Part shown: in pieces, positions 17,832 to 41,600 of the stretch
How positions within the stretch are numbered: position 1 is the first letter of the stretch
How the letters are laid out: each line of letters opens with the position of its first letter
DNA from: Antedon mediterranea
Lineage: Eukaryota; Animalia; Echinodermata
Assembly (NCBI RefSeq): GCF_964355755.1
Contig: NC_092672.1
Span: 7,136,441-7,200,440, forward strand
DNA: 64,000 nucleotides
Direction of reading: 5' to 3'
The notes under the pieces: model-generated
What the model saw: the letters and a program-made list of their open reading frames with translations, nothing else
What the model was told of the DNA's origin: nothing
Database searches by the model: none
Translations under genes and position numbers: made by a program

Positions 17832-17849
17832 TGCAACACTTGGTGCAGA

Positions 17850-19334: not shown

Positions 19335-19384
19335 TTTTCCTTTTACTCCTGAATTTTTTAGTTTTATGTGAAGATATTGATGTC

Positions 19385-21301: not shown

Positions 21302-21610
21302 AATAGTCTTTAAAGAGGTGGACGTGTAAATACTTTTACTTATATTTTTATTTGTAACATTGGTATATATATTGTTATTATTGACGTTGTTATTCCTATT
21401 ATTAACGTCGGCGTTTATGTTATCGTTATCTATACCATTAGTTTGACCATTATTAGTTGTATTGTCAATATTTTCTTTTTCATGATTTTCGTTATTATTC
21501 TCACCTTTATTATTATTATTATTGTCATTTACGTCATTATCAACAATTGTACCAATAATATTATTACATTTGTTGTTTATTTGATATGTGTTTGGGCCAT
21601 GGCCGGACCC

Positions 21611-22267
21611 CTATCTAGGTTTATATCTACTATACTTAACTACTTTATCATTATCTATATCATATGTAAAAGTTTCGTCATCAATAATGAGTTTATCGTA
21701 TCTTATTTTGAACGGTTTTCCGCTTTTAATAGCTTCATCTATTTTTGGTTGTAAATTTTTTCTGATCTTACGAACTCTTGCTGTGTAATCTTCGCTGATA
21801 GTAATTTGTTTCCTTCTTTCACCCCGGTCTTCATTTTTGTTCATTTTTCGACGTTGTGTTCTACTTGCTTTTAGAACATTTTCTTTAGTTTTGTAATCTT
21901 TGAATTTCACAATGATCGGTCTCGGTTTAAATCTTGCGTTGAGCCTATGTGCCCTCTCAATCTCAATATTCTCCCCACCAATACCGAGATCATTTGTAAA
22001 GTGTTCTTTTACTTTCTTCTCACTCTGATCCCAATTCTCATGTTCGCTATCTACCACTCCATATACTATTAAGTTGTTACGTCTGCTTTGACCTTCAATT
22101 TTGTCTATATGTTTGATTAATTGTAAGTTCATTGTTTTAAGTTGTTGATTTTCTTCTTCTATTATTGTCATTCTTTCGTTTAGTGAGTCCATGTTGCTAT
22201 TTAGTGTATCAATTTTTTCTTTTACGCTTTTAACATCTCCTGAAATGTCATCCATTTTCTTATTCAA
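21611..22267 (-). CDS. LINE ORF1 (coiled-coil + L1 ORF1/Transposase_22-like RRM region)
   Basis: ...RRNNLIVYGV...IEIERAHRL...RPIIVKFKDYKTKENVLKASR matches L1 ORF1p core pattern. Confidence 0.65.
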   Translation of the reverse strand: MNKKMDDISGDVKSVKEKIDTLNSNMDSLNERMTIIEEENQQLKTMNLQLIKHIDKIEGQSRRNNLIVYGVVDSEHENWDQSEKKVKEHFTNDLGIGGENIEIERAHRLNARFKPRPIIVKFKDYKTKENVLKASRTQRRKMNKNEDRGERRKQITISEDYTARVRKIRKNLQPKIDEAIKSGKPFKIRYDKLIIDDETFTYDIDNDKVVKYSRYKPR

Positions 22268-23725: not shown

Positions 23726-24317
23726 ATGCAAGGCTCTTCGGTTTATTTCAGATTCAACCTTGTATCCCGATCCAACTTTGTACCCAGATTCAACCTCGTA
23801 TCCAGATACAACCTTATATCCAGTTTCAACTTCATATCCACATTCGACCTTTTATCCAGATACAACCTCATATCAAGATTCAATCTCATATCCAGATACA
23901 ACATCATATCCAGATACAACCTCGTATCCAGATACAACCTCAAATCAACATTCAACATCATATCTAGATACAACCTCGTATTCAAATTCAATCTCAAAGC
24001 CAGATTCAACCTCATATCTAGATTCAATCTCACATCTAGATACAACCTCGTATCCAGATTCAACCTCGTATCCAGATACAACCTTATATCCAGATACAAC
24101 CTCATATCAAGATCCAATATCATATCCAGATACAACATCATATCCAGATACAACCTCATATCCAGATACAACCTCAAATCCTCATACAACTTCATATCCA
24201 GATTCAATCTCATATCTAGATACAACTTGGTATCCAGATTCAAACTCATATCCAGATTCACCCTGGTATCTAGATCCAAGCTCATATTCAATATTTTCTT
24301 CAGAATATTATTACTCT
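23726..24317. repeat. 18-bp minisatellite (~33 copies, consensus tatccagatacaacctca)
   Basis: Direct reading; unit is a multiple of 3 and lacks stops, so all six frames appear open (ORFs 23726..24379, 23760..24398, 23743..24291 are repeat artefacts). Confidence 0.9.

Positions 24318-24361
<44 letters not shown>
24318..24361. repeat. (TAC)n microsatellite (~14 copies)
   Basis: tactactactac... directly after the minisatellite. Confidence 0.9.
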
Positions 24362-24362
<1 letters not shown>

Positions 24363-24563
24363 GAATATTTGTATTGTGAGTTTAACGAATATTATTGATT
24401 TTTTTTTCAGCTATTTGTTTAATAAGTATCAACAATTATGATTACAAGCAAATATACCTGTCCTGGGATGGGTTTCAAATAATATAGTTTTACATTCATT
24501 TTAGAAAAAATGTATAGATTATTTAGACCAGTTGTCATAATCACATTGTAATCTATTTTCCAG

Positions 24564-24869
24564 ATAACAATGAAGTTATAAATCTTGTTGGTGGCAATGT
24601 AAAACGAGAAGGTCGACTTGAACTGAAAGGTGATATTTCTGGTACTGTTTGTTCTGTTGGCTGGACCGAAGCAGATGCTGCATTAGTCTGTAAGAGTCTT
24701 GGTTATGAAGGTGTTGACGAATATTTGGTGTATAGCTTTGGAGAAGGGAATGGGACAATTTGGTCGAATATTAATGGTTGTATTGAACATCCTACGTGTA
24801 ATCCAACGGATTCAACGGAAGATCCACAATGCACTCATGCAAATGATGTCGGGATAGTATGTTCACCTT
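24564..24869 (+). CDS. Mosaic LGR-like receptor, exon (SRCR domain 1); phase 1/1; upstream signal-peptide exon not located
   Basis: Acceptor ttttccAG at 24562-63; ...INLVGGNVKREGRLELKGDISGTVCSVGWTEADAALVCKSLGYEG...CTHANDVGIVCSP; donor T|GTAAGT at 24870; frame anchored by ORF 24725..24910. Confidence 0.8.
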
Positions 24870-25118
24870 GTAAGTTAACAGGGAGCTTCGATTTGTTACG
24901 ACCAACCTAGGCCAGGTCAACCGATGTGTCGGCGGTCCCTCGCCTGAACACAGAAACCGTCAAATCTGTGTCGAGGTGGAGATCGCGGACACACGTCCAA
25001 ATAATTTCCTCATGGTCGCCGGTCGTTTAAAAGCGAAAGCTTCTAATATTAAATTGTAATTTCAAAAAATCATGCATGTACCACTTTGAAGCTCAACTTG
25101 TTTACCCCTTTTTTAAAG

Positions 25119-25409
25119 TGACAATTCGACTTGTTGGTGGTGATAATCTGAATGAAGGGCGTGTAGAGTTTAATTATTTTGGTGAGTTTTCAACAATAAG
25201 GGATCTACATATCAGCGAAGCCGACGTCATTTGTCGTTCGCTTCCCTTTCCTTCTGCTGAGTTCTCGGATTGCTGTGGAATATATGGTACTGCCTTTGAC
25301 CTGCCTTCTTATCAAGTCGAATGTAAAGGAAATGAGAAAGAATTATCTGACTGTTCGATATATACTACCTATGATATTGACCAACAATCTGGGATTAGAT
25401 GTTCAACTG
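25119..25409 (+). CDS. Mosaic receptor exon (SRCR domain 2); phase 1/1
   Basis: Acceptor ccccttttttaaAG; VTIRLVGGDNLNEGRVEFNYFGEF...GIRCSTG; donor G|GTAAGA; ORF 25076..25474. Confidence 0.8.
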
Positions 25410-25785
25410 GTAAGAATATGCAATGCAATATTGTTTGCCAAAAGGTATCTGATGAGTTTAGAATTTCTTTATAACATTTCTATCTATTTCTTTCTATATT
25501 AACATTTGTACTAAATTTAACCTGCACTGATTATGTCAATGATAATAAATGTATGACAATTATTATACATTAAATAGTATTTTCTTAAAACAATTTAGTG
25601 TACTTAAAAGTCTTATTTCACAATATATTATTATAACACCAGCTCCTCAATTTTAGATGTTTTCTTTTAAAGAAACATGTACTAGGCCTACATCTTGTAA
25701 ATGTATTAAAGGGCGGAGAGAAGATTCTGGGTGGGTATTTTAATTATTAATTTATCTTTTAATAGTGGTTATGATATTTCCTCAG

Positions 25786-26079
25786 ATGGCGTAAGATTAA
25801 CTGGACAGTTTGAATCAGATGGACCACTTGAAATCTTTACAAGCTCTGCTTGGCATAAAGTATGTTCGGTTGATTTTAACATTGAAGTTGGCGAAGTAAT
25901 CTGCAGTCAACTCAACTTTGATGGTGTTTTAAATGTCACTGACATTGACAGTGACAACGGAACAACAACCATACGAGAAATTAATTGCACAGGAATGGAG
26001 AGAAAATTTGAAGAATGCTCTTTCAATATTGTGCCTGAACAAATGTGCACAAGTTTTGTGAAGCTGTCATGCATTGGAA
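25786..26079 (+). CDS. Mosaic receptor exon (SRCR domain 3); phase 1/1
   Basis: Acceptor atttcctcAG; DGVRLTGQFESDGPLEIFTSSAWHKVCS...VKLSCIG; donor A|GTAAGC; ORF 25731..26114. Confidence 0.8.
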
Positions 26080-26679
26080 GTAAGCAAATACAGTACTTAA
26101 ATATACATTATTAAGCAGGGACAAATTCTTGATATACAAACATTAACTTTCCCTAAGTTGTTATATATTATCTTTTTATATTAATCCACACGTCGACGTT
26201 TCGAATTTGTCTGAAAAATTTCGAGCTCAGGTATTATAAGTATGAAACGCCATGTGTGCCAAAATATTTATGTTTTACCAATATTATATTCAGCCTATAA
26301 CCAAGACATTTGACATTAGAACGTCTTCTTTGGGACACTCTATTTAGATAAACACCTTTACAGAAAACATCCTTTTCAGAGGAAACCTCTTTTCATGGAC
26401 ATTTAGGCCTCCGGGTAAAACGAGGGGCAAACATTGTATATTAATACTGTTGACAGACTCTCAGTTGAATCTCTAAAGTTTCCCTTTAATATGTGTCCAT
26501 TGTTGTAAACATAAGATATTCTTCATCCAGCTACGAAATTTATAGTAAAAAATGACTGACCTTTAATCAACAAAATATTGTTTTCTTGACAGAAAAAAAT
26601 GTTTTAATAATGACATACTGCAGCTAATAATCGTAAGCCATTTGTCTATATTAATTTGTATTTATAATAATATTTACAG

Positions 26680-26958
26680 GTGGATCAAGATTTGCTGATG
26701 GGTATACTAGGAATTCAGGGTATGCGCAGGCATACATTAATAGCGAATGGAATTATATTTGCGACAGTGAAAGAAGAGTTACTGAATTTATCTGCTTACA
26801 AGAGCAATCAACTGGTGTTCACTTAGTACGAAACCAATACCCATTCTACATTTCTGACGAATACGCTGATTGTGACATCACACCCGAAAACAGTCTACAG
26901 TGTAGTCAAAGCTTGGTTGATTGTTTTCCTTATCTTATTTATACGGAATGCTCAACGG
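26680..26958 (+). CDS. Mosaic receptor exon (degenerate SRCR-like domain 4); phase 1/1
   Basis: Acceptor taatatttacAG; SGSRFADGYTRNSGYAQAYINSEWNYICDSERRVTEFICLQEQSTGVHLVRNQYPF...YTECSTG, no stops; donor G|GTATGT. Confidence 0.65.
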
Positions 26959-27505
26959 GTATGTAATTTTTGTTTTATATGCCATCCCTGAGTTCAAATC
27001 CTTCATCTAATTTAAGCCTAATTAACCCTTCATAAAATGCATGTTGAATTCAATAAATGGTAGGTCTATAGGTCTAAATCTGTGTTAAGTGTTAATTAAT
27101 CGCTTCTAAAAGAGTTGTTTCTGACGGTACTTAATGCTTGGATAAATATTTTGCAATAACTGCTTTAAAATCAGAACGTCCATCCATACTATTTGTCATG
27201 TCATCCGCATTATTACTATGATGTCCGTCAGTTATAAGCCTCTGATGACAAATGCAAATAACGATCGACAATCATCTAAATTCATCCATTCTTTATCTAC
27301 AACACATCTTCTTCACAATAGTATAACATACACTGGTCTCCAGTACCATGAACCCCGAATACCAATTCCACGTTCTTGGTATTTATGCCGTTTGTTCATT
27401 ACGTCATTCTATTAACTAGTCAAGCATAGCGGGGAGTAACTAGTGCCATCATTTTGTTTTAAAGATGAGCTTATGAGATAATACTGTACCGCAATTTATA
27501 TTTAG

Positions 27506-27799
27506 ATGTTGTACGAATCAAGGGAGGAGGTCATCGTGGATTTGTTCAAATCTTCAAAGATGGCAAATGGAATTATATTTGCAGTGAAAACTGGAATGTT
27601 CAGACTACTGAGCTTGCTTGTAAAGAACTCAACTTTCGCTCCACTTCTACAGTGACTGGTGTTGGTGTAAACACAACCGCCGTAGTACCCGATGCTCAGA
27701 TCATTATGTGTGATGGAAGTGAATCGAGTTTGCTGAATTGTCAATTTGATACCAACATGCAATGTAAACGTCATGCTGTACAAGTCACGTGTTCTGACG
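27506..27799 (+). CDS. Mosaic receptor exon (SRCR domain 5); phase 1/1
   Basis: Acceptor aatttatatttAG; DVVRIKGGGHRGFVQIFKDGKWNYICSENW...VQVTCSD; donor G|GTGATA; frame anchored by ORF 27652..27861. Confidence 0.75.
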
Positions 27800-28016: not shown

Positions 28017-28328
28017 TTGGTATACGTCTTAGAGGATCGCCAGTAAAGCATGCTGGTCGTGTGGAAATATACAACAACAACCAGTGGTGGACGGTTTGCG
28101 ATGATTATTGGGATACCAATGACGCGAACGTGGCATGCATTATGGCGGGTTATTCTGGAGCTACCAGAGGGTATCGTGAGGCAGCGTTTGGTGAAGGGGT
28201 TGGTCCTATTTTGCGCTATGATTTTTTTTGTGACGGTGATGAAGACGACTTATTTGATTGCCCATTTGGTACACATTCCGATGGATTCTGTTCACATTAC
28301 GAAGATGCAGGAGTGATTTGTTCTACAG
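28017..28328 (+). CDS. Mosaic receptor exon (SRCR domain 6); phase 1/1
   Basis: Acceptor ttttatcttactctacAG; VGIRLRGSPVKHAGRVEIYNNNQWWTVCDDYWDTNDANVAC...CSHYEDAGVICST; donor G|GTACGT; ORF 27974..28378. Confidence 0.85.
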
Positions 28329-28717
28329 GTACGTTTCAGATCTTTGTATATGTGTACCAAAATAATCCAAAGGCATAACACCATAAAGGAGTATAACTGG
28401 GTTTACATGCAAAATTCACACATTTTTATACTTTTTATACAATAAAAAAAACACTACAAGACCTTGAGATTTAGTGTTCAGATTCAAATTCATACACATT
28501 AATTAGGTTATTTGACAATAACTAGGGCCCGCACTAGAAGCAATAGCTTGTATCATGAGGGCCCCTACAAAATAAATATAAATATGCAAAATAAATAAAA
28601 AGAAACATCCCGTCTTAATGTCTGCCCTTTCATGTTATCGTCGCGTAATTGATGTTATTGTGCCGTGATTGTAATTTGTACGATTAATTAAAATGAATGT
28701 CTTGTTCCTTGTAACAG

Positions 28718-29020
28718 ATATAATTCGTCTTTCTGATGGAAGCCCATCTGCCGGTCGGGTTGAACTATTTATCAATGGCCAATGGGGAACGATTTGTGAC
28801 GATAACTGGGACATAAATGATGCCATTGTTATTTGCCGACAATTAGGGTTTGACAGAGCTGCTAACGCATACGACATGGCTAGATTTGGTCCTGGCAAAG
28901 GTCCAATACATTTTGATGAAGTTCAGTGTGCGGGAAGCGAAACCGATATCTTACTGTGTAACACTAAAAGTATTCATGATTGTGAACATTCTGAAGACGC
29001 AGCGGTGTCCTGTGTTTCTG
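28718..29020 (+). CDS. Mosaic receptor exon (SRCR domain 7); phase 1/1
   Basis: Acceptor cttgttccttgtaacAG; DIIRLSDGSPSAGRVELFINGQWGTICDDNWDINDAIVICRQLGF...CEHSEDAAVSCVS; donor G|GTAAAT; ORF 28693..29031. Confidence 0.85.
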
Positions 29021-29951
29021 GTAAATATTGAACAAAATATATAAGTTTGAGTTTTTTTTTCACAGTAGATTTTCCGTCAGATGTTACACACAGTTGTTTA
29101 TCTTTTTCATCTAGTCAGACGAATATGTGGTGAATATTAATTTACAACATTTTGTTGTTCCATATTTTTTTTTGGACCAATTAGTTTGTGGCGAGTTAAA
29201 CTGTGGCCGAGTTTACTTGGGGTCGAGTTATGTATGGTAGATAAGATAGATGATTAAATATCAAATACCTATCATCAATACGTTAGGCAATAAGGAGTAT
29301 CTAAACATTAAATTGAAGCTCCCTTAATAAATCAACATTATTTTCATTGTAAGCTGTACTCTTTTCCTATTTAGACTCATTTGTGACTCCGTCATGGTTG
29401 AAACCATTTAACAGTATTCTGACAAAGGGTAAGTTACCATAAGATCAGTAATAACAAAGTAAATGTTATATTAATGAACAATGGACAGAGAATAAGAAGT
29501 ATTATTCTCATCTGATATATACTATAATAAAAAAGAAACGAAAATGAATAAGAATGCAAGCAAAATCATAATTTATCGAATAAGATAGTAAGATTGAAAT
29601 GAAAAGATAATATCAAGAGTAATGAAACATAAAAGAGAGAAAATTATTACATTTGAGTTTTAATTTAACAAAATAAAAATAACCCTTTACTAGCAGTAAT
29701 GATAGCTTCGATAGAAGCTCTAAGATGATAGACAATACAATTGTTATTTCTAAGAGCTATAGTGTATAAACGGAGTATTTTTAATCGAACGTTTCGATCT
29801 TTATTTTATATCTTTATCAACTCACTGCTTGTTGAATCCAATAGATTCAGGATCGGTTAAAAAATAAAATTATTGTTAATTTAAATGAAGCGAATCAGCA
29901 AATCACCCGTCGTAAACATTGAATTTTCAACAAAGTGTTCAATTTTTGCAG

Positions 29952-30284
29952 GTTGTAAAGACTATTGGTTTCAAAACGATAATTCTTGTATAACAGTTAT
30001 ACATACAGAGCATAGTACTACGCTTTCCGAATTGTCTTGTCCAGAAGGATCGTCAGTTCTTTCAGTAGACACAGAAGTAGGCATGTTAGGAGAATATCTT
30101 CGAATAATATATTACTATTATGAAGAAATCACTCTTAAACTATTTCTTTGGCAAGATGGTAAATCAAAAACTTGCACTTTTTTTAATCGTACTGGTGATA
30201 ATGGAGACACATGGGATGTGATTAGTGTACCGGCAATACAGTGTAACGACGTCTATGCTTATGTTTGTAAAATGGATATTGAAG
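29952..30284 (+). CDS. Mosaic receptor exon (C-type lectin-like domain); phase 1/1
   Basis: Acceptor caatttttgcAG; GCKDYWFQNDNSCITV...LSCPEGSSVLSVDTEVGMLGEYL...WQDGKS...WDVISVPAIQCNDVYAYVCKMD; donor G|GTACAG; ORF 29885..30379. Confidence 0.65.
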
Positions 30285-30506
30285 GTACAGTATTTGTAAT
30301 GTCTCTATGCCATTGTACAATTGGTCTGTATTTAATCATCTACTCAATGATAACATTAATGAACGAGTCTTGTGTTTAATCACGTGTGAAACCAAATTTT
30401 ATAGAGAGTGGTTCAGTACAACATACAGTATTTGTTAAATATACATCATCACATACCTAACATTTTAAAGTATTTATTTGATTAACTCAAACAAATTAAA
30501 TTTTAG

Positions 30507-30635
30507 ATCAGTCTCAAACATGTTCAAACAATCAATTCAGATGTTTATCTGGCGCTTGTATTCTAAAATCATTACAATGTGACGGAAACTTCGATTGCCC
30601 TGACAAAAGCGATGAAGATGAACAATGTATTCAAG
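30507..30635 (+). CDS. Mosaic receptor exon (LDL-receptor class A repeat 1); phase 1/1
   Basis: Acceptor aaattttAG; [37 protein letters not shown]; donor G|GTAATA. Confidence 0.75.
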
Positions 30636-30948
30636 GTAATACAGTAGGCCTATATCAGTATTATTCTCGAGATATTCTCGTGTATTTCTGGTGGAATTTC
30701 TCTCGTTTTCACGACGTAGGCATTCGCGGTCTAAAGGGAATTCTTCTGCGCAGACAAAAAAGTACAGGCCGAATGAAGATAGTTACCACCGGTAAAGTAC
30801 TATAGGCCAGGAATGAGTAGTTCTTTTTTAAAAACCAAAAATTAGTGAAACTAACCTGCTTGACAGCTTCTTTAGAAGAATGGCTATAGGCTAGGCTTCG
30901 CATATTCCATATTATGTATCAATAATATTGCGGTTTTTCTTATTTTAG

Positions 30949-31188
30949 AGTGTTCCGATTCGTTGGACGGCCACGACTATCGGGGGACAAAGAACAATAC
31001 AACAAATGGAATACGTTGTATAAAATGGACAAGTAATTTTAAAGGAACTGATGCGATATATCCAGTAGATTACATTGGTAAAGGTATTGGTGATCACAAC
31101 TTTTGTCGGAATCCAAACGGAAGACAACAGCCATGGTGTTATACAGAGGATTTTTATGAAGTTGAAGATTGTGAAATTCCATTATGTG
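30949..31188 (+). CDS. Mosaic receptor exon (kringle domain); phase 1/1
   Basis: Acceptor tttttcttattttAG; ECSDSLDGHDYRGTKNNTTNGIRCIKW...NFCRNPNGRQQPWCYTEDFYEVEDCEIPLC; donor G|GTGAGG; ORF 30963..31301. Confidence 0.8.
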
Positions 31189-31479
31189 GTGAGGAAATGA
31201 ATATCAGAGTCTATTGTATGCTGTATTTGTTTCAAACAATCTCTTATGGCCAAATCAGCCAGCGTCGTATGACGAGGCGTGAAAACATTAAACATGTTTA
31301 AAGTTCTTGTGACGACCTAAAAACTGCACCTGAAGCTAGCTCAAGACGACTCGTCTCGTTGGGATTCAACTCAGACAGCACCGACGAGTCAAGACGTTTC
31401 GTTTCACTAAAACCTATTCCAAAGTTTTGGTAACAAGTTGTTATTATTTGGGTTATAACACTATATCATTTTTTTTTAG

Positions 31480-31614
31480 ATCAAGTTTCAGATGCAGATT
31501 TAAACAATTGTCCAATCACAAGCTTCCAGTGTTCATCAGGTCATTGTATTTCCTATTCATTCCGTTGTGACCATAAACCAGACTGCCCAGATAGCTCAGA
31601 TGAACAAGATTGTA
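31480..31614 (+). CDS. Mosaic receptor exon (LDLa repeat 2); phase 1/1
   Basis: Acceptor cattttttttttAG; [36 protein letters not shown]; donor A|GTAAGT. Confidence 0.75.
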
Positions 31615-31803
31615 GTAAGTTTATGTTCACATGACTGTTATATTGTTATTTTGGATAAAGATTTGTTTAAAAAAAAGAAAAATAAATAATTTATACGCTT
31701 TGTACTTGGTGCATAGCGCACCGCATAGTCACTTGTTAGACGAACTCACTGGGCCACTCAGTGCTTTAAAATGCGCATAATACATGTTTTTTTTTAATGG
31801 TAG

Positions 31804-31920
31804 TATTCAGGAATTGCACCGATGTCGAGTTTTCCTGTGATAATGGACGCTGTTTACAATCTTCATTGCAATGTAACAGAATTAAAGACTGTTTAGATGG
31901 AACAGACGAACTAAAATGTG
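31804..31920 (+). CDS. Mosaic receptor exon (LDLa repeat 3); phase 1/1
   Basis: Acceptor ttttttttttaatggtAG (the nearer cAG gives a stop-containing frame); NCTDVEFSCDNGRCLQSSLQCNRIKDCLDGTDELKC; donor G|GTAGGC. Confidence 0.7.
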
Positions 31921-32239
31921 GTAGGCGGTTTTTCTTGGATAACATGGCATAACATTAGCACAACATTTTATTGTAAGGGGAGTTTACAGTTGGAGAGATT
32001 TTTTGGATCTTACAGTGTATTATGCCTCATGTAATGTATAGAACAACAAAAGACTGATAGGTTGTAGATACAAAATGGGAAGATCTTTAATGTATGGAAA
32101 ATTAGAAGGTGAAGCCTAGAACGTGCCGCACTGCAACTGCAATTGTATTAAAATAATTTCGCTCGAGTAACAAAAGTGCTGTATATATCCATTTATTTTT
32201 TCCGGTGCAAGTGTCACTTAATACAGTTATCTTTACCAG

Positions 32240-32365
32240 GTGAATGCAGCTCTGGTTTTTTACGATGTAGTGATGGTAAATGTTTGCACCCAAAATTCAA
32301 ATGTGATCGAATAAGAGATTGTCCAACAGGAATTGATGAGCCCATGGATGAGCCAAATAATTGCC
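32240..32365 (+). CDS. Mosaic receptor exon (LDLa repeat 4); phase 1/1
   Basis: Acceptor tatctttaccAG; ECSSGFLRCSDGKCLHPKFKCDRIRDCPTGIDEPMDEPNNC; donor C|GTAAGT; ORF 32176..32373. Confidence 0.8.
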
Positions 32366-32541
32366 GTAAGTAGTAGCAATCAAATAATCACTAACATTTC
32401 ATATTTCATTGAGTTTAGACAGGTATTTGAAGCAAGTTTTTCTTAAGTGAACATATAAATGATGACAGTGACGAAACTAGACTAGCTTTATCATTTGGAG
32501 GCAAGTTATCGCTAATTCTTGTGTTGTCATTCCTATTATAG

Positions 32542-32697
32542 AATATACTGATACAAAATCGTTATGTAATCAAACAGAGATGGTATGCGCAAATGGCATT
32601 TGCATTGATCAGCGTCACCTGTGTCTATTAGACTACGATGTGTATTCAGACGACGTTATAACAGGTTGTCGAGATCGTAGTCACTTACAACATTGTG
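32542..32697 (+). CDS. Mosaic receptor exon (LDLa-like repeat 5); phase 1/1
   Basis: Acceptor tcattcctattatAG; SLCNQTEMVCANGICIDQRHLCLLDYDVYSDDVITGCRDRSHLQHC; donor G|GTGAGT. Confidence 0.7.
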
Positions 32698-33498
32698 GTG
32701 AGTTGTTTCATGTGTTGTGCAACGTTCGTATTTATTCAATATTATAATCATACAACGATCCTGTTTATTCAGGAACGATGGTACTTGACAAAAATGTATA
32801 ACATAAAGGTTTCAATTGCTTTGTTTATCGTGCATTTTCTACTTTTCACAAGTTATGACACGCCATATATGCCTTTTTTAAATATTAAGTCAAAACACCT
32901 GGACCCGAAGACTGGCATATTAAAGTACTTTTCGTGAATAAGTGCATTTTGTAGGATTGTAGATAATAAAAAAATCATTTTGTTTGAAAAATCCAGTAAA
33001 ATAATTACTCACATTCTTTAGCTTTCGCCATCTTGGCTGACGGCTTGATCACAAGTGATCCGGTCCACGGCTACTTCCTGGAAATCTGTTGTTATTGTTT
33101 CTAGGTGACGTCATACTTTTTCGTAGCAATGATGTGTATACGTGATCGAGAAATACAGCTCCTTCGTCGTGGTTGATTGCGTTATACCCCACCCCCCCCC
33201 CTCTTTCTGATTTGGATTGCTTTTACTTTGTAAATTATTTGTTTTATTTTTAAAGTGTGAATTATTTAAAGTACGATTGTTTTATTATTTATTACAAACA
33301 GTTTTCATTGGGGACCTACATGCAACATTATAATAACTCAGCATTTATTTATTATATTTTGATTTGAAGACCCTTACAGAAGACTCGGTTCTCGGGCAAA
33401 TTGTTCCATATATTGTTCCACTAACACAAGAACTTATGAGATAAATCTCCTCTTTTTGCAAAAGTTTCTAACTCTTTAAATCATACTTTATCGTGTAG

Positions 33499-33732
33499 CT
33501 TCATTCGAGTGTCCAGCAAACACATACAAGTGTCCGAGCTCGTACTGCATAACAATCAAAAGCCGATGTGATGGGCGAGATGATTGCGAAAATGGAGAAG
33601 ATGAACAGTATTGTGAGGATTATAACTGTCCAGGATACTTCAAATGTCAAGATGCGTCAAATTGTATTTCTCAAGGTCGTGTGTGTGACGGAATCAAAGA
33701 CTGTCTTCGTGGGGATGATGAACTTTTTTGCG
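33499..33732 (+). CDS. Mosaic receptor exon (LDLa repeats 6 and 7); phase 1/1
   Basis: Acceptor ctttatcgtgtAG; [75 protein letters not shown]; donor G|GTAAGA. Confidence 0.8.
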
Positions 33733-33924
33733 GTAAGATGTGATTCAAAATTCAAAAAATATTAATACTAAATAAATAGAGAATCAGTCATAAAATAAGT
33801 AACACAAAGTGTCATCTATGTGTTCTAGATTATTTGGATACGTTGATTTAGGAAAAAATGAAACCGTAACGAATTGATCTTTAAAATTGTTCAAACTACT
33901 TTTCATTGATAAATTGTGTCATAG

Positions 33925-34033
33925 ATATACAGTGTCCTAACGGGTGTTTCTGCCAGGACCTTTCATACAACTGTCATGGAGTAGAATGGACAGCGGAAAA
34001 AGCTGCCTTAATTTCGCCAGATGTACGATACTT
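33925..34033 (+). CDS. Mosaic receptor exon (LRR N-terminal cap); phase 1/2
   Basis: Acceptor aaattgtgtcatAG; DIQCPNGCFCQDLSYNCHGVEWTAEKAALISPDVRYL; donor TT|GTAAGT. Confidence 0.7.
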
Positions 34034-34246
34034 GTAAGTAAAATAATTTATATTTTTATATATGTATTGTTTATAAAAAGGTAACTAAACATTGTTTCCT
34101 TGCAAACAATTCCATACACAATTTGTCGCAGCCAATCATAAGATCAAAGGACTGTTAAAACTTGGTCCTATATTGGCAAGGCGAGCTCAACATCATGTTG
34201 TTAAATTACCTTGATATTAAATAAGTTCTTTTTTTTTTATTTTCAG

Positions 34247-34339
34247 AAATCTAAGCAAAGTATCTATAGTTCCTTCAGAAGACACAGGTGAAGATCTGCT
34301 ATTCTTAAATCCCAGTATTTTCAAATTAAATTTTGTTTT
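34247..34339 (+). CDS. Mosaic receptor exon (atypical 31-aa LRR); phase 2/2
   Basis: Acceptor ttttttttttattttcAG; NLSKVSIVPSEDTGEDLLFLNPSIFKLNFVL; donor TT|GTAAGT. Confidence 0.6.
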
Positions 34340-34510
34340 GTAAGTTATATTAAATAAAAATAATGTTTAAATAATATTTATGTATAGAGATGAATAACTA
34401 TGCGGCAGTAGTAGAGTATGTTCAAGTATTTTGTTTACACTTGTAGATGTAGTATAACTATTGTGCTTTTTTTTAAACATTACTTAATAATGAGCATTTT
34501 CTTTTTACAG

Positions 34511-34582
34511 AGATATCTCTGGAAACAATATCAAGAAACTAACAGGTGAAATGTTTTATCAGTTAGACCATCTGACAACTCT
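34511..34582 (+). CDS. Mosaic receptor exon (LRR, 24 aa); phase 2/2
   Basis: Acceptor cattttctttttacAG; DISGNNIKKLTGEMFYQLDHLTTL; donor CT|GTAAGT; 72-nt exon typical of LGR LRR exons. Confidence 0.7.
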
Positions 34583-34802
34583 GTAAGTCGTCATCACAAT
34601 TTAGTAAACAGTTTTTAAAAATGGTTTTTGCATTTGGACTTTTGTCAATAGACGTAATAGAGGCCGACGTCATTAGGTTCCTATCTAGAGATCATGTATA
34701 ACGTTATACAGTAATATGTATTCATCAAATGCACCAGAAAGCAGAATAGCAGGTTTATCGTAAATAGTAACGAATTTATAAACTTATATTTACCTATTCT
34801 AG

Positions 34803-34874
34803 ATACATGCAAGGCAACGATATATCATCATTAGAAGGCGATGTCTTCCAGGATTTAAAACAATTGAAATATCT
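34803..34874 (+). CDS. Mosaic receptor exon (LRR, 24 aa); phase 2/2
   Basis: Acceptor tatttacctattctAG; YMQGNDISSLEGDVFQDLKQLKYL; donor CT|GTAAGT. Confidence 0.7.
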
Positions 34875-35103
34875 GTAAGTAAACAATGTTAAACTTATAT
34901 AGAGTAGACTAGTTGTAGTTTTTGGTAAACCTTTGAGTTTATTTTTTTCTAAACCTAATCTGAAGCTCATTAAACATGTTTAGTTAAATTTCTTTATACC
35001 GCTACAATTATAGTAGACTATATATATAATACTTTTGCATAAAAAAACATAAAAAACATACATCAACATTTCGGAACTAATTGTTTATTTGTTTCATTAA
35101 CAG

Positions 35104-35175
35104 TAATATTCATGGCAATGGATTGAAATCCATCGGCAAAGGAACATTTTTCGGATTATCAAAACTCCAGTATTT
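35104..35175 (+). CDS. Mosaic receptor exon (LRR, 24 aa); phase 2/2
   Basis: Acceptor ttatttgtttcattaacAG; NIHGNGLKSIGKGTFFGLSKLQYL; donor TT|GTAAGT. Confidence 0.7.
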
Positions 35176-35367
35176 GTAAGTATAAAGTATTTTAAAGATG
35201 TACGTGAAATGTATCGGTTAATGGAGAAAACACCTTACAATTTAAATACAAAATAGCAAAAAAATATACACAAATATTAAATTACTAAGTAAAAGTTTCA
35301 GATAGTTATTTATCGTGTATATACATATAACAGAATGGTAACATTATTTATTTGTGCTCTATTTTAG

Positions 35368-35439
35368 AAATATGTCTGGAAATAACATTGGTAACGTTGA
35401 TAAATTGATATTCAAGGACTTGATGTCTCTTAAAACATT
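35368..35439 (+). CDS. Mosaic receptor exon (LRR, 24 aa); phase 2/2
   Basis: Acceptor tgctctattttAG; NMSGNNIGNVDKLIFKDLMSLKTL; donor TT|GTGAGT. Confidence 0.7.
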
Positions 35440-35563
35440 GTGAGTAATGCATCTTATGAAAGACAGACTCTTCTACAAAGTATATACAGCAGCTCTTGCT
35501 CTTATAGCGGTGTTGTGTCCATGTAGGAACCGCGAGCTTCATGAAGTAGTTTTTTCATTTCAG

Positions 35564-36632
35564 AATATCTGATGATTATTCATTTTGCTGTTTGTTGGAA
35601 GATGTTGGTTTTAACGACGTTGACTGTACGCCAGATGCAGACGTGTTTTCATCATGTGACAATCTTATGCAGAATGTGTACCTTAGAGCTTTCTTATGGT
35701 TGTTTGGACTGAGTGCACTTCTTGGAAACAGTTTTGTAATCTTATGGCGATGGATAAATTGGCCTGCAAAGAAAAGTCCATCTTACACACAATCGTTTCT
35801 AATTACTAATCTTGCAGTTGCCGATATGCTTATGGGGTTGTATATGTTGATCATTGCCAGTGCCGATTCCTACTATCGGGAAGATTACGTCACACATGAT
35901 AGCGAATGGAAGGCCAGTCGAATATGTACGCTTGCAGGAATCTTAGCCTTTCTATCCAGTGAATCGTCTGTGTACACTTTAACCGTCATTAGCTGCGACA
36001 GGTTTTTGCACATTGCATTTCCATTTCGCCGTTTTCATCTTACACAAGAAACAGTAAAATTTGCAGTGGCTGTAGGATGGTTTCTGACCCTCTTCACGAG
36101 TATTCTTCCAGCATTACCAATCCCGTACTTTAACAATGAGTATTACGGTGTCACCAGCGTGTGTCTTGCATTGCCATTAACGTCGGAAAAAGTGAGAGGT
36201 TGGGAATATACCGCTGCGATTTTTATAGGTTTTAATTCGTTATGCTTCTTGCTAATTTTTGTTTGTTATTCAGGTGTGTTCATTTTAATAAAGATATCGA
36301 GTAGTAAAGTAAATCAAGCAGGAAACATGAATTCTGACAAGAATAAGCACATTGCAATTGCTATACGAATGGCTGTTATTGTCGCTACTGACTTCTGCTG
36401 CTGGGTACCCATCATAATAATGGGTATTTTATCATTGACAACATCTGTTAACATACCCGCCACGGTATATGCCTGGGCTGCAGTCTTCATTTTGCCAATA
36501 AATTCAGCAATTAACCCATACTTATATACAATAGCATCTTTAAAGAAACTTCAAAGGCAACTAAAACCTTCTAAACATGTATCAGAAAGTATGCCAGCTA
36601 CGGAAAGAATAAATGTGAAAATTGGTACGTAA
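35564..36632 (+). CDS. Mosaic receptor large exon: LRR C-terminal cap + rhodopsin-type 7TM (LGR-like), to stop TAA (or alternative donor at 36624/36625)
   Basis: Acceptor agttttttcatttcAG; ISDDYSFCCLLEDVGFNDVDCTPDADVFSSCDNL then 7 hydrophobic helices; CDRFLHIAF (DRY-like) after TM3; NPYLY in TM7; ORF 35592..36632. Confidence 0.85.
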
Positions 36633-36985
36633 AGAAAATTGTCTATTTCTTTATGTAATTAGGATGATAAATCGCCGTTACTGTTACTACAGAGAGAACA
36701 AAAAGTGTTTTTATTCTATATAAATAGTTTGGTCTAAATTTAAACGAACATTTATTTTTAGTAAGTTTTCTAGCCCTCTAAGTAATAATAATGGAAACTG
36801 TTTTCCAAGGGTCCCTCCTACGTTAATTATTTTATAATTGATTGTTAAACTTTTGTTATGTATGTCACGGAAACTGAACGTCATACATCACGTCACATTG
36901 TCTCTCTCCACCTAGTTACAGTAAGAACAACAAGCAATTATTGTAGTCATACTTTTAACTCTTGTTTTTGTCATTGTTTACTCAG

Positions 36986-37155
36986 AAGGTGTAACCATCC
37001 CACAAAATCGAAAAGAGCAATCTACCGTTGAGAAAATCGAAGCTATGTTATCAACTGGAACAGACAGACATGGGAAAGAACTTGATGCAGACGTACGTAA
37101 ACACCTTTCAATGGCGTTGAGATTTGCTAAGCAGCAACAGGCTGGAATTGTACAA
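36986..37155 (+). CDS. Candidate additional C-terminal tail exon of the receptor (phase 1 in, 0 out); speculative
   Basis: Phase-compatible with potential donor ATT G|GTACGT at 36624/25; acceptor tcattgtttactcAG; open frame EGVTIPQNRKEQSTVEKIEAMLSTGTDRHGKELDADVRKHLSMALRFAKQQQAGIVQ; donor CAA|GTAAGA. Confidence 0.3.
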
Positions 37156-37184
37156 GTAAGAACGTTTATTTATATTGTTATGTA

Positions 37185-37330
37185 AGTACACATCACAAAA
37201 CAGAAAAATTTCTGAATAAAATGACAATGCGGTTCGTAGGCCTGTCAGTAGCTGGATCTCAATGGAGATTCAAATAAAATATGCAAAAATATAAATCTGA
37301 GCTTTCGCTAAACCGTGTAATCCTTCGTTA
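37185..37330. repeat. Partial copy of the MITE family seen at 56510-56945 (TIR-related sequence)
   Basis: aatgacaatgcggttcgtaggcctgtcagtagctggatctcaatggagat matches the TIR aatgacaatgctgtgggtatcagtggctggatctcaatggagat. Confidence 0.4.
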
Positions 37331-38244
37331 AACCGTGTAATCCGTCGTTAGGGCAAGTATATTATACTTATAAACTAGTGTTATGGGCAAGTTGCCTATC
37401 TTATCACCTATTGGCTTCAAATATGCTCCCCGCCGCAGTAATGATTTTGTGTGAAAAGTGTGAAGGATAACCATAATTCTGTTGTAGCCTTAAAATATAA
37501 AATATACAAATACATTACAAAAATATCATGTAGCAAATTAGGTTCAGTTATCTATATATAAATTATTACGTAAGAACAAAATTCGGTAAATCGCGTGTTA
37601 CTAGAATGTTTAGGCCTACTCGATGGTATGATAAAGTTGGTTCGTACTTTCGATACTGATTTTAACCACCTGATGTAACCCTGTTTACTGATTAAATTGA
37701 GTTAGATAATTAGTTATTGACAATTAAATTTAGGTTTAACGATTTGCCCCAAATAGGGTCAAATAGGATACACGGTCTAATGGATGTCTATCTAGAAAAA
37801 TACCCGCACACAATAATACGAGGATGCCTCGCATTTTCTCCTAATCTCCTCCTACGATAATTGTTTTTAATAGCTGAAAGCCGGTTGAACTTTTCCAGTA
37901 CAGCATTATAATGTTGAAGACCGGCTGATTTTCTTTAAAAAATACTATTTTGATAGATTTAATAGACGTTTATAGGCCTACAAAAGGATTGCTTGGCGAT
38001 GAATGGAACATTAGTATAAGATAATGCAAGTTGTTTCTATGTTGTATCTAAATGAACACATGTCGTGTAAAGCCGATTTTCCACCAGGCGAATTGTTTCA
38101 CGCGAATCAAAAGCGTCAGCTTTTACGCATGCGTAGATATGGATTTGGAAGACGCTTTCGAGTTGTACGAACAAATTTGCCTATTGGAAAATCAGGTTAA
38201 ATGACAATAAAGATGTATTTATTGTTTTCTTTGGTTTCTTGCAG

Positions 38245-38391
38245 GTTGAGGTTGAGGATTGTGTGGAATCCGAAGAAAATACACAAGAAGAATCTGAAGA
38301 CACTACACAAAATCAAACTCAAGACGAAACACAAGAACGAAGCGAATACTGTATAGGGGTATCTAATTCTGCTTGTGATAACGTTATATAA
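38245..38391 (+). CDS. Candidate terminal exon copy A (acidic Ser/Thr/Glu-rich tail; stop TAA 38389-38391)
   Basis: Acceptor ttctttggtttcttgcAG; VEVEDCVESEENTQEESEDTTQNQTQDETQERSEYCIGVSNSACDNVI*. Confidence 0.3.
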   Translation, partial: VEVEDCVESEENTQEESEDTTQNQTQDETQERSEYCIGVSNSACDNVI

Positions 38392-38488
38392 GATGACCCG
38401 AGTAGTTTCTCTGTTGCATCTAAATGAACAAATAATAAGTCGTGTAAATAACAATAAAAACGTATTGTTCTGTTTTGGTTTCTTCTAG

Positions 38489-38677
38489 GTTGAGGATTGT
38501 GTGGAATCCGAAGAAAACACACAAGAAGAATCTGAAGACACCTCACAAAATCGATCTCAAGACGAAACACAAGAACGAAGCAAATACTGTATAGGAGTGT
38601 CTAATCCTGCCTACGATAACGAATCATACGTCACTACAAGTCTCACCTATCAAGACGACACACTTTTTCAGCATTAA
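38489..38677 (+). CDS. Candidate terminal exon copy B (tandem duplicate of copy A with longer C-terminus; stop TAA 38675-38677)
   Basis: Acceptor tgttttggtttcttctAG; VEDCVESEENTQEESEDTSQNRSQDETQERSKYCIGVSNPAYDNESYVTTSLTYQDDTLFQH*. Confidence 0.3.
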   Translation, partial: VEDCVESEENTQEESEDTSQNRSQDETQERSKYCIGVSNPAYDNESYVTTSLTYQDDTLFQH

Positions 38678-41600
38678 ATGACAGTTCCAAAATAATATCG
38701 AACAATATCATAGTCTCTTTCATAAATTAATGCTAAACATTTTTTTCTCTGAACAAATATGTTTGTACAATATTTTGGTTGAATACGTCATATTAATGTC
38801 ACATAATAGTCACATTTGTAATATTTATCTGACAAAAACTGTTATTTAAAGTCTGATTTGAATATAATTATCAATCTTTATTTTTCATGTTCTTTTGGAA
38901 AAAACATGTTTATTGTAGTTTAAACCATAGTACATTGTTACTTATAATTGGCTAAAACTCATTGGTCAGTTCAGCAATTTCCATAGAATTTAAGGTAATC
39001 ATTTTGTAAATTTATAAATACTGTGCGATGTACGTTTCTCTTTTATTATTGTAAATACTTACTTAAAAAAAAAATTAGGGCAAAGTTCGATCCTTTTTTA
39101 ATTTTTTGATAAATAATCCTGTGTTCTGCGCATGTTACCTCAACATATTTTAGCCATTTTCCGAAAAATCCATGTACTATAGTACAGAAAAATTTTCGAA
39201 TTCCGATAATTTTAATTTAGTAAAACTACTATTTTCATAAATGACATGCGCAGAGTCACAAATGTTGAAAAACCTCAATACATACGGTATAATTGAAAAT
39301 TTTGCTATTTAGGCTATTTTTCGAGAAAAAAAAAATTCTTTCAATTTTTTCAAAAAATGGCCAAATTTTGAACCTTTTATAGTGTTATATTTGACATGCG
39401 CAGAATAATGCAATATAGTCTGCGCATGCTACCTCAATTGTGTTAAACAGTATATATTTAAACATTTTTCGAAACTGGGACCGCAATTTCGGAAAGCATA
39501 AGTTGATATATTATTAGCTAATTGTAGATGAGGATGACAATGATCTGTAAAAGAAAAAAAAATACGAAAAAACTACGTATTAATTCTAAACAATTTAATT
39601 GTCATTCAAAAATCTATTTCAAGAAAAGAACATTTCGACCTACTCATGATATTACAAATATAAATATTTACTAGGAGAATCCCTTATTAAAAGAGGAGCA
39701 ACTATCCCACAGTCGTACAGTAAAAATACATTAGTAGATTTCAAACCCAATACAAAAACAACCTCGATTAAACCATTACTTAGAATAACTATTCTATAAA
39801 ATAAAATAAATTATGTATTTAGTTGGATAATTAATAAGGATAATTAATGCAATAGAAACATTATATAAGACATAATGAATAAAATAACTTATGTACTGTA
39901 TACATTTTCGATATAAACTTCTTGATGAAATCAAGAATGCCGTGCCGTAATTGTATATATCTATTTTCATAAAATTTGCTAAAAAACAAAAATATATGAT
40001 TTGATTTTTTTTAAAATCATTATTTAAAAATAAGATTCTGGTAAAGAACCGTAATACATAATGCTAATAATAAAATAAAGCATTGCAATTTCAGGAGTGC
40101 AGGCTATAAAAATAAAACCAGGCGTACTTTAAAATATATATGAGTTTTCAAAAGATACTTTGGTTACGGCAATAATACAAATATGGAATGTAACTGGATG
40201 TGATGTGAATACATTAATCTAAAATAATCAGTAATCTAAATTTTTAAACAAAAAATAACAAAAAGTACATTAAAATTATTATTTATAAAATGAAATTAAT
40301 TTCTAGTAGTAAAATTATTAACAAATAATTATAAGGATGACGATGATCCAAGTAAAGTAAATTGGGTTCCTGCTAAACTTTTAGATCAAATTGATCTTGT
40401 TGAAATCTCTAATGTATGATAGGTAAATTCTGCATCATACATCATAAGCCCAACAGCTTAATACAGGTTCAACATATGATATATACAGTATGTGACACTG
40501 TACTATTACATAATTGCCTAATACTGTACAATTTATGCCATATATGTGAACACAAAGTACAGAAAACTGTGTGAAATAACACAAAATTACAGTTCGAAAG
40601 ACCAGTAAATTCAAATTGATAAAAGTGCTAAAAACGGCACCAAACTGTAATCAATTAAATGGCCGCTCTACATGTTTTAATTGCATGTCTACAGTCTTAC
40701 ATTTTAATAATAGTCCCATTTCTGATGGCGAAAAAATGGAGTCAAACATTCACACTATTAAATCAGTTTTTTTTTTACTTCAAGCAGTAACAAGACATAT
40801 GCAGATGTATTGAAACATACTCTTTATTTATTAATCAGCTTTTTTATTTCAAATACGAAAAAATTGATCGTAACATAACTTATAAATGTTAATTATTGTT
40901 TAAAATTTTAATTTTCTATCAATGTTCCATCTGATCAGTTTTCATCAAAAATATATTTGATAGAAATGAATATCGTTTTATTGCTTTTGGTTGTGCGTTA
41001 ATATTACTAGTTTATTGGAAGACAAGAGAATTAGAGCTACTAAGAACATTTTCTTAATATATTTCTGCTTGTTATTCAACTAAAATAATAAAAAAAAATA
41101 TTTTATTATAGCACATTAGCAAATATTTAATTTATTTTTTTCATTTAATATTACACTATCGGTGAAATGAATGAAATATACATCATATTTCTATTATTAA
41201 GACGACACATAATATATTATTGCCGCTAGAAATTAATTAATAAAGTTTAATTTATTTCCCCCTAGAAATGTGAATTGAAAAATCACCAAGTAGCCTAGTA
41301 ATTAGGTGGTTTAGAGGTATAGCATTAGTAAACTGGATCTGGTGGGTTCACACTTTGTGCATACATTTTTTGGAAGGAGTATAATATACTATACATTTTT
41401 GTGGTCATGTTAGAATGGACACAATTCACTACTTCCATACAAGATGACAGTGTAAAATGTATGTGTTATATTTTTATTCTATTCAGAGTCATTTAATATT
41501 TGATCTAAAAAAAATAGATAAAAACATGAAAATGAGTACTGCACAATGATCTCTAGCATGTCAGGAGCACACAGTATGAATACAGTGCAATAACTACAAG

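Follow-up and report, generated by a model that had tools for sequence, protein, structure and literature searches.

Described relatives of the receptor considered here include the type C LGRs (G protein-coupled receptors containing leucine-rich repeats, LRRs), namely Lymnaea GRL101 (C2) and RXFP1/2 (C1), in which a rhodopsin-type seven-transmembrane (7TM) domain follows upon LDLa modules and LRRs (Tensen 1994 as cited in PMC8286064; PMC4079206; PMC4561518). In the survey by Veenstra, true GRL101 orthologues have ~12 LDLa repeats and crinoids have a single such orthologue (PMC8286064). A paper on LGR evolution notes of the cytoplasmic tail that it "was not considered in detail" (PMC4079206). 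Here we describe the 3′ end of a receptor gene of this general type on a 64,000-nucleotide stretch of the genome of the crinoid Antedon mediterranea (NC_092672.1, positions 7,136,441 to 7,200,440 of the forward strand; hereafter the window, in which position 1 is the first letter). The open reading frame (ORF) of its 7TM exon closes at 36632, and our results indicate that the coding sequence leaves this exon just before that stop and continues into a spliced cytoplasmic tail, the last exon of which has been tandemly duplicated.

The gene was rebuilt from the window using tblastn, with two A. mediterranea RefSeq proteins as guides, P0121 (XP_071944555.1, 1046 aa) and P0001 (XP_071944551.1, 670 aa), both of which are named "uncharacterized protein". 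The window DNA is AT-rich (GC ~0.33), and the spliced reconstruction gives one intact gene at 28142-38677 on the + strand, with 15 exons, GT-AG introns and an uninterrupted ORF of 1078 aa. Pfam recognizes SRCR (E 2.7e-34), Ldl_recept_a (1.4e-26, four matched stretches), LRR_8 (6.8e-21), LRR_4 (5.1e-11) and 7tm_1 (5.7e-28, residues 661-927) in this product, and four 72-nt phase-2 LRR exons at 34511-35439 place the LRRs directly N-terminal of the 7TM domain. The last 151 residues of the product have no Pfam match, and a scan of the tail returned a chance-level match only (Ig_NUP210_6th, E 0.03). The gene is a crinoid LDLa/LRR rhodopsin-type receptor with an N-terminal SRCR region, of the kind that NCBI names "GRL101-like" among its relatives. 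It shares the arrangement of LDLa, LRR and 7TM parts with the type C LGRs, but differs from them in having only ~4 LRR exons and 4 LDLa modules, in carrying SRCR at its N-terminus, and in belonging to a multi-copy echinoderm expansion. The number of LDLa modules, taken with the presence of close paralogues (P0001-P0005, P0121), argues against this gene being the single-copy true GRL101 orthologue. The parts of the gene that matter for the tail are as follows, with splice sites marked here and below by a slash.

28142-35439, + strand: 12 upstream coding exons (SRCR x2, lectin-like region, LDLa x4, LRRs), from tblastn with P0121/P0001 and the spliced ORF
35564-36624, + strand: 7TM exon, 1061 nt (hinge cysteines, TM1-TM7, helix 8, 32-residue linker), ending ...AAA ATT G
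36625-36985, + strand: phase-1 intron, 361 nt, donor TTG/GTACGT, acceptor tttactcag
36986-37155, + strand: tail exon 2, 170 nt, phase 1 in and phase 0 out, encoding EGVTIPQNRKEQSTVEKIEAMLSTGTDRHGKELDADVRKHLSMALRFAKQQQAGIVQ, predicted helix-loop-helix
37156-38488, + strand: phase-0 intron, donor CAA/GTAAGA, 1333 nt to acceptor B (to acceptor A it ends at 38244 and measures 1089 nt)
39686-39810, + strand: first canonical poly(A) signals past the stop of the last exon, from a motif scan (ATTAAA at 39686 and 39767, AATAAA at 39800 and 39805)

A sequence-only reading of this stretch had proposed that the receptor continues beyond its 7TM exon through a good phase-1 donor into a phase-matched exon at 36986 and then into one of two tandem terminal exons. 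The 7TM end, the donor, exon 2 and both terminal copies are all present where that reading had put them. The 7TM exon ends AAA ATT G/GTACGTAA, with the phase-1 donor at 36625 and an in-frame TAA at 36630-36632. Scored with a rough donor matrix, G/GTACGT of the 7TM exon reaches 6.2 and the exon-2 donor 6.9, both within the 3.9-10.6 of the gene's other donors, and the first donor of the gene is the same GTACGT hexamer. The acceptor at 36986 reads ...ttactcag/AAGGTG and, with the carried-over G, opens a frame KI-E-GVTIPQ... that is stop-free to CAA/GTAAGA at 37155/37156.

The spliced product proposed in that reading has P0001 as its best match (96% identity over 100% of the query), followed by Antedon and Anneissia japonica paralogues and then by many "GRL101-like" receptors of echinoderms and molluscs. 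The 7TM exon is 97.7% identical to P0001 residues 197-549, and exon 2 is 98.3% identical to residues 550-607, with 56/57 residues the same. P0001 and P0121 share the domain order of the window receptor, its exon-2 peptide and both tail junctions, which fall exactly as predicted: ...ERTNVKI/EGV(T/N)IPRN... at the first and ...QQQAGIVQ/VEVEDCVEFEES...CIGVSNPAYDNESYVTRSLAY(Q/E)DDTFFQH at the second, that is, ...AGIVQ/VEVEDCVE...NPAYDNESYVTRSLAYQDDTFFQH. Their terminal exon has the same ending, ...CIGVSNPAYDNESYVT.SL.Y.DDT.FQH. Among the sites at which these two proteins agree with each other, the window differs in reading IPQN for IPRN and VESEEN for VEFEES, a difference that probably marks another Antedon lineage or locus.

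The tail introns are also found outside Antedon. Anneissia P0003 (L001) and P0041 (L002), and P0020 (L003) of the sea urchin Strongylocentrotus purpuratus, have a phase-1 intron 29-32 residues past the NPxxY of TM7, the spacing being 29-30 in P0041 and P0020, and the phase-0 intron after exon 2 recurs at the equivalent place in P0041 and P0020, as well as in the window and P0003. The gene for P0003, a protein 62% identical to the window receptor, has its phase-1 donor at the same residue (NM G/GTAAGTGGTAA), followed by a homologous exon 2. The exon-2 peptide is recognizable in the crinoid paralogues P0002-P0005 and P0122 through the pattern (V/L)VExIE...(I/V)xxxLSxALxLAK, which includes two invariant leucines. 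Isoforms X1 and X2 of the paralogue P0004 (P0122/P0123, A. mediterranea) differ by 10 residues, TGMKTGEREY, exactly at the junction of the 7TM exon and tail exon 2, which suggests transcript-based modelling and alternative splice-site use at that junction in the paralogue.

Since the RefSeq junctions are exact in two homologues and the same tail introns occur in Anneissia and sea-urchin relatives, these gene models point to an extended tail that is real. It is also ordinary, because the gene structure is already annotated in A. mediterranea homologues. We judge, with a probability of roughly 0.85, that the best explanation of the locus is the normal 3′ end of a crinoid GRL101-like receptor gene, with a spliced tail and a tandemly duplicated terminal exon whose copy B would be ancestral and copy A truncated. 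The 7TM exon would then be spliced at G/GTACGT (36624/36625, phase 1) to the 170-nt exon at 36986-37155, and this exon in phase 0 to a terminal exon that would supply a disordered, strongly acidic tail of ~60 residues with NPxY near its end; the TAA at 36630 would be the start of the intron read in frame. We infer this splicing in the animal from the exon and intron positions and the homology. Two points weigh against this explanation: the RefSeq XP_ models are themselves predictions, and the window's own protein is not in the protein collection, where the best match is the 96% one and an exact look-up of the 7TM ORF product was negative. The first canonical poly(A) signals past the B stop, at 39686-39810, would imply a 3′ untranslated region (UTR) of ~1.0-1.1 kb. 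Two local features are recorded here for completeness. P0121 is without 34 residues (VRGWEY...FILIK, corresponding to TM5) that the window (36190-36290) and P0001 have, which means either that an internal splice was modelled wrongly or that the paralogue is defective. A 20-nt unit, TTCGCTAAACCGTGTAATCC, occurs in two tandem copies (95% identity) at 37304-37343, within the intron that separates exon 2 from the terminal exons.

The stop codon overlapping the donor had been singled out in the sequence-only reading as a special feature, a view that comparison with the rest of the gene does not sustain. An in-frame stop follows within 5 codons after 9/14 donors and within 3 codons after 7/14; the gene's phase-2 introns read xxG TAA or TGA directly, and in its phase-1 introns, where the sequence is AT-rich, the third codon opens with the T of donor position +6. 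Because early in-frame stops are the norm among the gene's donors, the overlap is without special meaning and simply results from the donor consensus where introns are AT-rich. Early stops after the homologous donor also occur in Anneissia P0003 (GKW, then stop) and P0041 (GW, then stop), and none is present in the S. purpuratus gene. We considered a conserved early-stop device for a short isoform and rejected it, given the prevalence of such stops in the gene's introns, the donor +6 T in AT-rich DNA and the absence of the stop in S. purpuratus.

It follows the same line of evidence to ask whether a short form ending ...KIGT at 36632, made by intron retention or by polyadenylation in intron 1, could be the main product, or whether the downstream exons could belong to another gene. 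The ORF does close at 36632, and some low-level intron retention is always possible, but we hold this alternative to be extremely improbable. A motif scan found no AATAAA or ATTAAA in the 361-nt intron (36625-36985), the introns of this gene as a rule bring an early in-frame stop, and homologous proteins or genes in three genera join the tail exons to the receptor. A separate gene, which the sequence-only reading had itself raised, fares no better: exon 2 opens in phase 1 without a start codon, and the interval 36600-39000 holds, on either strand, short chance ORFs only and no competing gene. An independent or antisense gene in this interval was rejected on that basis.

The region between exon 2 and the end of the gene contains two copies of the terminal exon within a tandem duplication.

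38013-38384, + strand: duplication unit A, comprising intron end, acceptor, first 138 coding nt of the terminal exon and an extra GTTGAG (pairwise alignment and repeat search)
38071-38197, no strand assigned: insertion of ~127 bp resembling a miniature inverted-repeat transposable element (MITE), in unit A only, with 48-nt imperfect inverted arms (73% complementary) and TAAA on both sides
38245-38391, + strand: copy A, 48 codons + TAA, a 3′-truncated terminal-exon duplicate; acceptor ttcttgcag/G, phase 0, NSAC for NPAY
38385-38621, + strand: duplication unit B, in which the ~240-bp unit recurs
38453-38458, + strand: AATAAA, 62 nt past the copy A stop and 31 nt before acceptor B, a possible poly(A) signal for an A-terminated mRNA
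38489-38677, + strand: copy B, 62 codons + TAA, the full-length terminal coding exon; acceptor ttcttctag/G, phase 0, NPAY

Copy A reads VEVEDCVESEENTQ...SNSACDNVI and copy B reads VEDCVESEENTQ...SNPAYDNESYVTTSLTYQDDTLFQH, each followed by a stop. A repeat search shows that the copies share 135 nt at 91% identity (38249-38383 vs 38487-38621), far above chance, and that 47 nt of upstream intron are also duplicated, at 83% identity (38015-38061 vs 38387-38433). Pairwise alignment places the left edge of the ~240-bp unit at TATAAGAT, found at 38013 and 38385, and the right breakpoint lies after GATAACG, inside the terminal-exon coding sequence. Copy A owes its final two codons and its stop to duplication junction and intron sequence, GTT ATA TAA, giving VI and a stop. 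The extra GTTGAG in unit A makes copy A begin VEVEDC, as in A. mediterranea P0001/P0121, while copy B begins VEDC; those two homologues differ from the window in having a single full-length terminal exon starting VEVEDC, where the window has a truncated VEVEDC copy and a full VEDC copy. Copy B extends 16 codons beyond the duplicated part (ESYVTTSLTYQDDTLFQH, then stop) and matches the whole terminal exon of P0001, with 87% identity over its entire length (residues 609-670); copy A is 84% identical to P0001. By these comparisons copy B is orthologous to the final exon of the A. mediterranea models and, in the best explanation, is the ancestral full-length exon; copy A is a 3′-truncated duplicate that is not its equal. 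What had been described as a tandemly duplicated terminal exon is indeed duplicated, at 91% over 135 nt, but the picture of two equal alternative exons falls away, as copy A is cut by the breakpoint, ends on a junction stop and carries NSAC. What is new at this locus is a small tandem duplicate of the last coding exon, truncated by the breakpoint.

A tandem duplication of ~240 bp would have copied the intron end together with the acceptor and 138 nt of coding sequence from the start of the terminal exon, and the MITE-like element would have been inserted later into the upstream unit; no second copy of this element was found within the window. The duplication probably postdates the split from the P0001/P0121 genes, given that A and B share VESEEN where both A. 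mediterranea proteins have VEFEES, or else the copies have been homogenized. Over the 138 shared coding nt, A and B show 12 differences, which we classed by eye as 5 synonymous and 7 non-synonymous, and the six amino-acid differences, polarized by eye against P0001 and P0121, comprise three derived changes in each copy. Two of the three in copy A destroy NPAY (P>S, Y>C). These differences are too few to show or exclude constraint on copy A. The AATAAA at 38453 has a duplicate at 38206 in unit A, which marks it as ancestral intron sequence.

Tandem duplication of the terminal exon is also seen in the Anneissia gene for P0003, whose terminal exon ends C.YNPVYDANS before its stop.

Anneissia japonica terminal-exon copies: L001:12665-12748 and L001:13118-13222 (VUNX01065560.1)

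That duplication, of a ~450-bp unit, is independent of the one in the window; its copies resemble each other rather than the Antedon exon. It differs further in that the upstream copy gained a strong donor, GCA/GTAAGT, within an indel of 9 nt. Annotation treats this copy as an internal exon, so that the tail has the segment twice, and this tail is not acidic in the same way.

Each copy in the window has its own acceptor, open frame and stop (that of copy A being made by the duplication junction), and on this reading of the DNA alternative C-termini are possible. Copy A may be a silent pseudo-exon that is skipped with the intron, the gene then making only a B tail of the A. mediterranea type. 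Its truncation at the breakpoint, its junction-derived stop and the loss of NPxY are all in keeping with this, as are the single full-length tails of both A. mediterranea homologues and the MITE-like element 47 nt upstream of the acceptor, which could disturb recognition; we would put it close to, though below, an even chance, given that the acceptor, pyrimidine tract and frame of copy A are intact and that it is hard to see how a good donor-proximal acceptor would be wholly ignored. Alternatively, copy A may be a real terminal exon, either alternative or, as its acceptor is met first, even predominant. The receptor would then have a 48-residue end, ...SNSACDNVI, without NPxY and the distal 16 residues, and copy B would lie in the 3′ UTR, or the mRNA would end at AATAAA 38453. 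This is a substantial possibility that we stop short of calling likely. In its favour, the intact acceptor comes with an extended run of pyrimidines and with a plausible branch point that lies downstream of the MITE insertion, a stop in the last exon would not be expected to elicit nonsense-mediated decay, the AATAAA lies 62 nt past the A stop, and three derived amino-acid changes each in A and B mean that A is not obviously decaying faster; the independent terminal-exon duplicate of Anneissia is, moreover, annotated as expressed. However, the derived changes P>S and Y>C strike NPAY, the sole motif conserved between genera, and copy B keeps both frame and motif, which would be unexpected had it long been UTR. 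The AATAAA being ancestral intron sequence also tells against use of copy A, and the 5 synonymous and 7 non-synonymous differences are too few to reveal constraint.

In a further arrangement, which we regard as very unlikely, copy A would be spliced in series to copy B through a weak phase-0 donor, GGG/GTATCT, at 38359, giving an internal repeat ...ERSEYCIG-VEDCVESEEN.... The A-specific change GGA GTG > GGG GTA does create a phase-0 G/GTAT that scores 3.5, against 3.9 for the gene's weakest accepted donor, and L001 offers a precedent, its copy 1 having gained GCA/GTAAGT and being annotated as an internal exon. Yet this donor fits poorly at positions +4 and +5, an intron of just 130 nt would result, and the homologues of the window gene give no evidence of such splicing.

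The predicted structure of the tail divides along its exons. AlphaFold2, given six aligned crinoid sequences, predicts helix 8 at tail residues 2-11, then a disordered linker, and then a helix-loop-helix contained wholly in exon 2, with helices TVEKIEAMLST and ADVRKHLSMALRFAKQQQ at tail residues 46-56 and 67-84 (pLDDT, the per-residue confidence score, 76-92). The terminal exon is predicted to be disordered (pLDDT ~42-44). Copy B contains 16 D/E, 3 K/R and 15 S/T in its 62 residues, with three CK2-like [ST]xx[DE] sites. Phosphorylation-code-type motifs (PxPxxP/PxxPxxP) are represented by one overlapping pair in distal B (TSLTYQD / SLTYQD) and one in A (SNSACD), and a motif scan found none in exon 2 or the linker.

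The sequence-only reading had called these Ser/Thr/Glu-rich tails typical of arrestin-binding phospho-acceptor clusters. That description is not borne out by the peptide, which is mainly acidic (16 D/E beside 15 S/T in 62 aa), with a single overlapping motif pair in distal B. We consider it doubtful that the terminal exon is an arrestin-binding phosphorylation-code tail. The number of Ser and Thr residues in B, the CK2-like sites, the motif pair there and the one motif in A would suit such a role, and like tails of that type the segment has a prediction of disorder. On the other hand, most of the S/T residues stand isolated among Glu, Gln and Asp rather than clustered, and the acidic stretch is poorly conserved within Antedon (87%) and unrelated in sequence in Anneissia. 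What is conserved is a Cys...NPxY element and not an S/T cluster.

This element, Cys-x(2-4)-NPxY-D, is the sole one common to the terminal exons of Antedon and Anneissia: NPAY occurs in copy B, P0001 and P0121, and NPVY in Anneissia P0003, whereas copy A has NSAC. NPxY is absent from the paralogues P0002, P0004 and P0005. The NPxY sequence is the classical PTB-adaptor and endocytosis signal of LDL-receptor-family tails (FDNPVY), and here too it sits in the cytoplasmic tail of an LDLa-bearing receptor. The two cases differ in that the host here is the tail of a GPCR (G protein-coupled receptor) and in that the aromatic residue at -2 that [FY]xNPxY needs is missing, the sequences being VSNPAY in Antedon and VYNPVY in Anneissia. 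The tail may function in trafficking or regulation through the acidic S/T stretch and NPxY, and we prefer control of trafficking, since NPxY is known as a PTB-adaptor and endocytosis signal.

The tails of more distant relatives have a different content. Many related receptors of sea urchins, brittle stars, bivalves and gastropods, together with Anneissia P0041, have tails of 140-200 residues that share a conserved module.

Kinase-like tails in relatives: P0041 (L002:11764-12488), P0020 (L003:9968-11174), P0039, P0096, P0127 and others

Three of these tails give sub-threshold matches to Pfam Pkinase or PK_Tyr_Ser-Thr, at the same profile positions (~85-138). A 16-sequence profile of the module matched 915 PDB chains at E<=10, and all 60 listed are protein kinases or pseudokinases; the best match is GCN2 residues 394-492 (E 8.5e-8), which we take to be the GCN2 pseudokinase region, followed by MNK1, STK33, VRK3, BRAF, FGFR1 and KSR among the matches listed. 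Against 1.84 billion proteins the profile returned 709 matches at E<=1e-3, the top ones including receptor tails and bona fide kinases. Seven top matches were scanned: four are non-receptor proteins that carry Pfam Pkinase, and one is a receptor with a giant Kringle/F5-8C/CUB/lectin/LDLa/LRR ectodomain. The AlphaFold2 model of the P0041 module is composed of a helix, a beta-hairpin and a helix, with 62 residues at pLDDT >=90 and a predicted template modelling score (pTM) of 0.72, and a Foldseek search of this model against the PDB gave kinase domains as all of the best 50 matches, with ULK1 at a template modelling (TM) score of 0.57 and 2.8 Å over 107 columns. The relatives' tails are thus confidently predicted to be a fragment of the protein-kinase fold. 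As read from the alignment, the module spans approximately the hinge/alphaD to alphaF region, with no N-lobe, and has H-G in place of HRD and A-F-L in place of DFG; with this predicted composition it cannot be catalytic. We found no description of a kinase-like or otherwise characterized tail in GRL101-type receptors in the searchable literature.

The window receptor does not qualify as a carrier of this module. Its exon 2, and that of other crinoids, gives no significant similarity to the module profile (hhalign E 0.14 and 0.17, hmmsearch 0-4 bits), its tail has no Pfam kinase match, and membership was not accepted given the non-significant similarity in the two hhalign runs and hmmsearch. 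Unlike the relatives, the window tail has no HG remnant of the catalytic loop, no beta hairpin and no alphaF-like helix, and the terminal exon is an unrelated acidic disordered segment. There are nevertheless points of contact. The window and the relatives share a three-exon tail with a phase-1 and then a phase-0 intron at the same place in the protein, a rough neighbour-joining tree without support values places the window's crinoid clade among the long-tail (module-bearing) receptors, and VRKHLSMALRFAK aligns in register with an alphaE-like I-xx-D-L-xx-A-L-xx-L-H through the short motif I/V-xx-h-L-xx-A-L-xx-h. The other crinoid paralogues align inconsistently with the module. It is circumstantially plausible that exon 2 is a vestige of the kinase-like module. 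A broader account would make exon 2 the surviving alphaD-alphaE-like hairpin of a C-lobe-only pseudokinase module ancestral to a large echinoderm/mollusc LDLa/LRR GPCR clade, the distal half having been replaced in crinoids by an acidic NPxY tail, with tandem duplication of the terminal exon recurrent, arising independently in Antedon and Anneissia, and with isoforms with and without the endocytic motif in the present gene. Taken jointly, these propositions form a tentative picture that we think rather unlikely to be right in full.

Several other features of the window lie outside the tail. Further SRCR-like tblastn matches occur at 24566-27771, upstream of the start codon at 28142, and are 25-31% identical to P0121 in its SRCR part; these may represent additional 5′ exons of the receptor gene, or else a neighbouring SRCR gene. 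In the intron between the exons at 30507-30635 and 32240-32365, an LDLa-like open stretch at 31509-31622, with 39-50% identity to the LDLa modules of P0001/P0121, ends at a GTA/GTAAGT donor-like site and may represent an LDLa exon that has decayed or escaped annotation. On the - strand at 17118-22267, upstream of the receptor gene, there is a run of long ORFs (638, 235, 207, 237 and 218 aa) that by eye look like the endonuclease/reverse transcriptase and ORF1 of a non-LTR (long terminal repeat) retrotransposon. At 23726-24400 several frames are open on both strands owing to a short-period tandem repeat, with RYNLIS / YPDTTS-type periodic translations, and the stretch ends in a poly-Leu or poly-Tyr run.

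These findings support the notion that the receptor is 119 residues longer than its 7TM ORF suggests, and a gene call made from ORFs and ending at 36632 misses all of the regulatory tail; probably the same truncation affects many of the ~350-aa "proteins" from metagenomes or assemblies among the matches. The truncated duplicate amounts to a natural experiment: if acceptor A is used, the animal would make a receptor without NPxY, the sole tail motif conserved between crinoid genera. The family-level kinase-like tail is a more interesting lead than the core finding, though it lies outside the window's own sequence: the predicted kinase-fold fragment of the relatives, which has neither an N-lobe nor catalytic residues, points to a module for intracellular interactions, so far unstudied, in a large family of orphan GPCRs.

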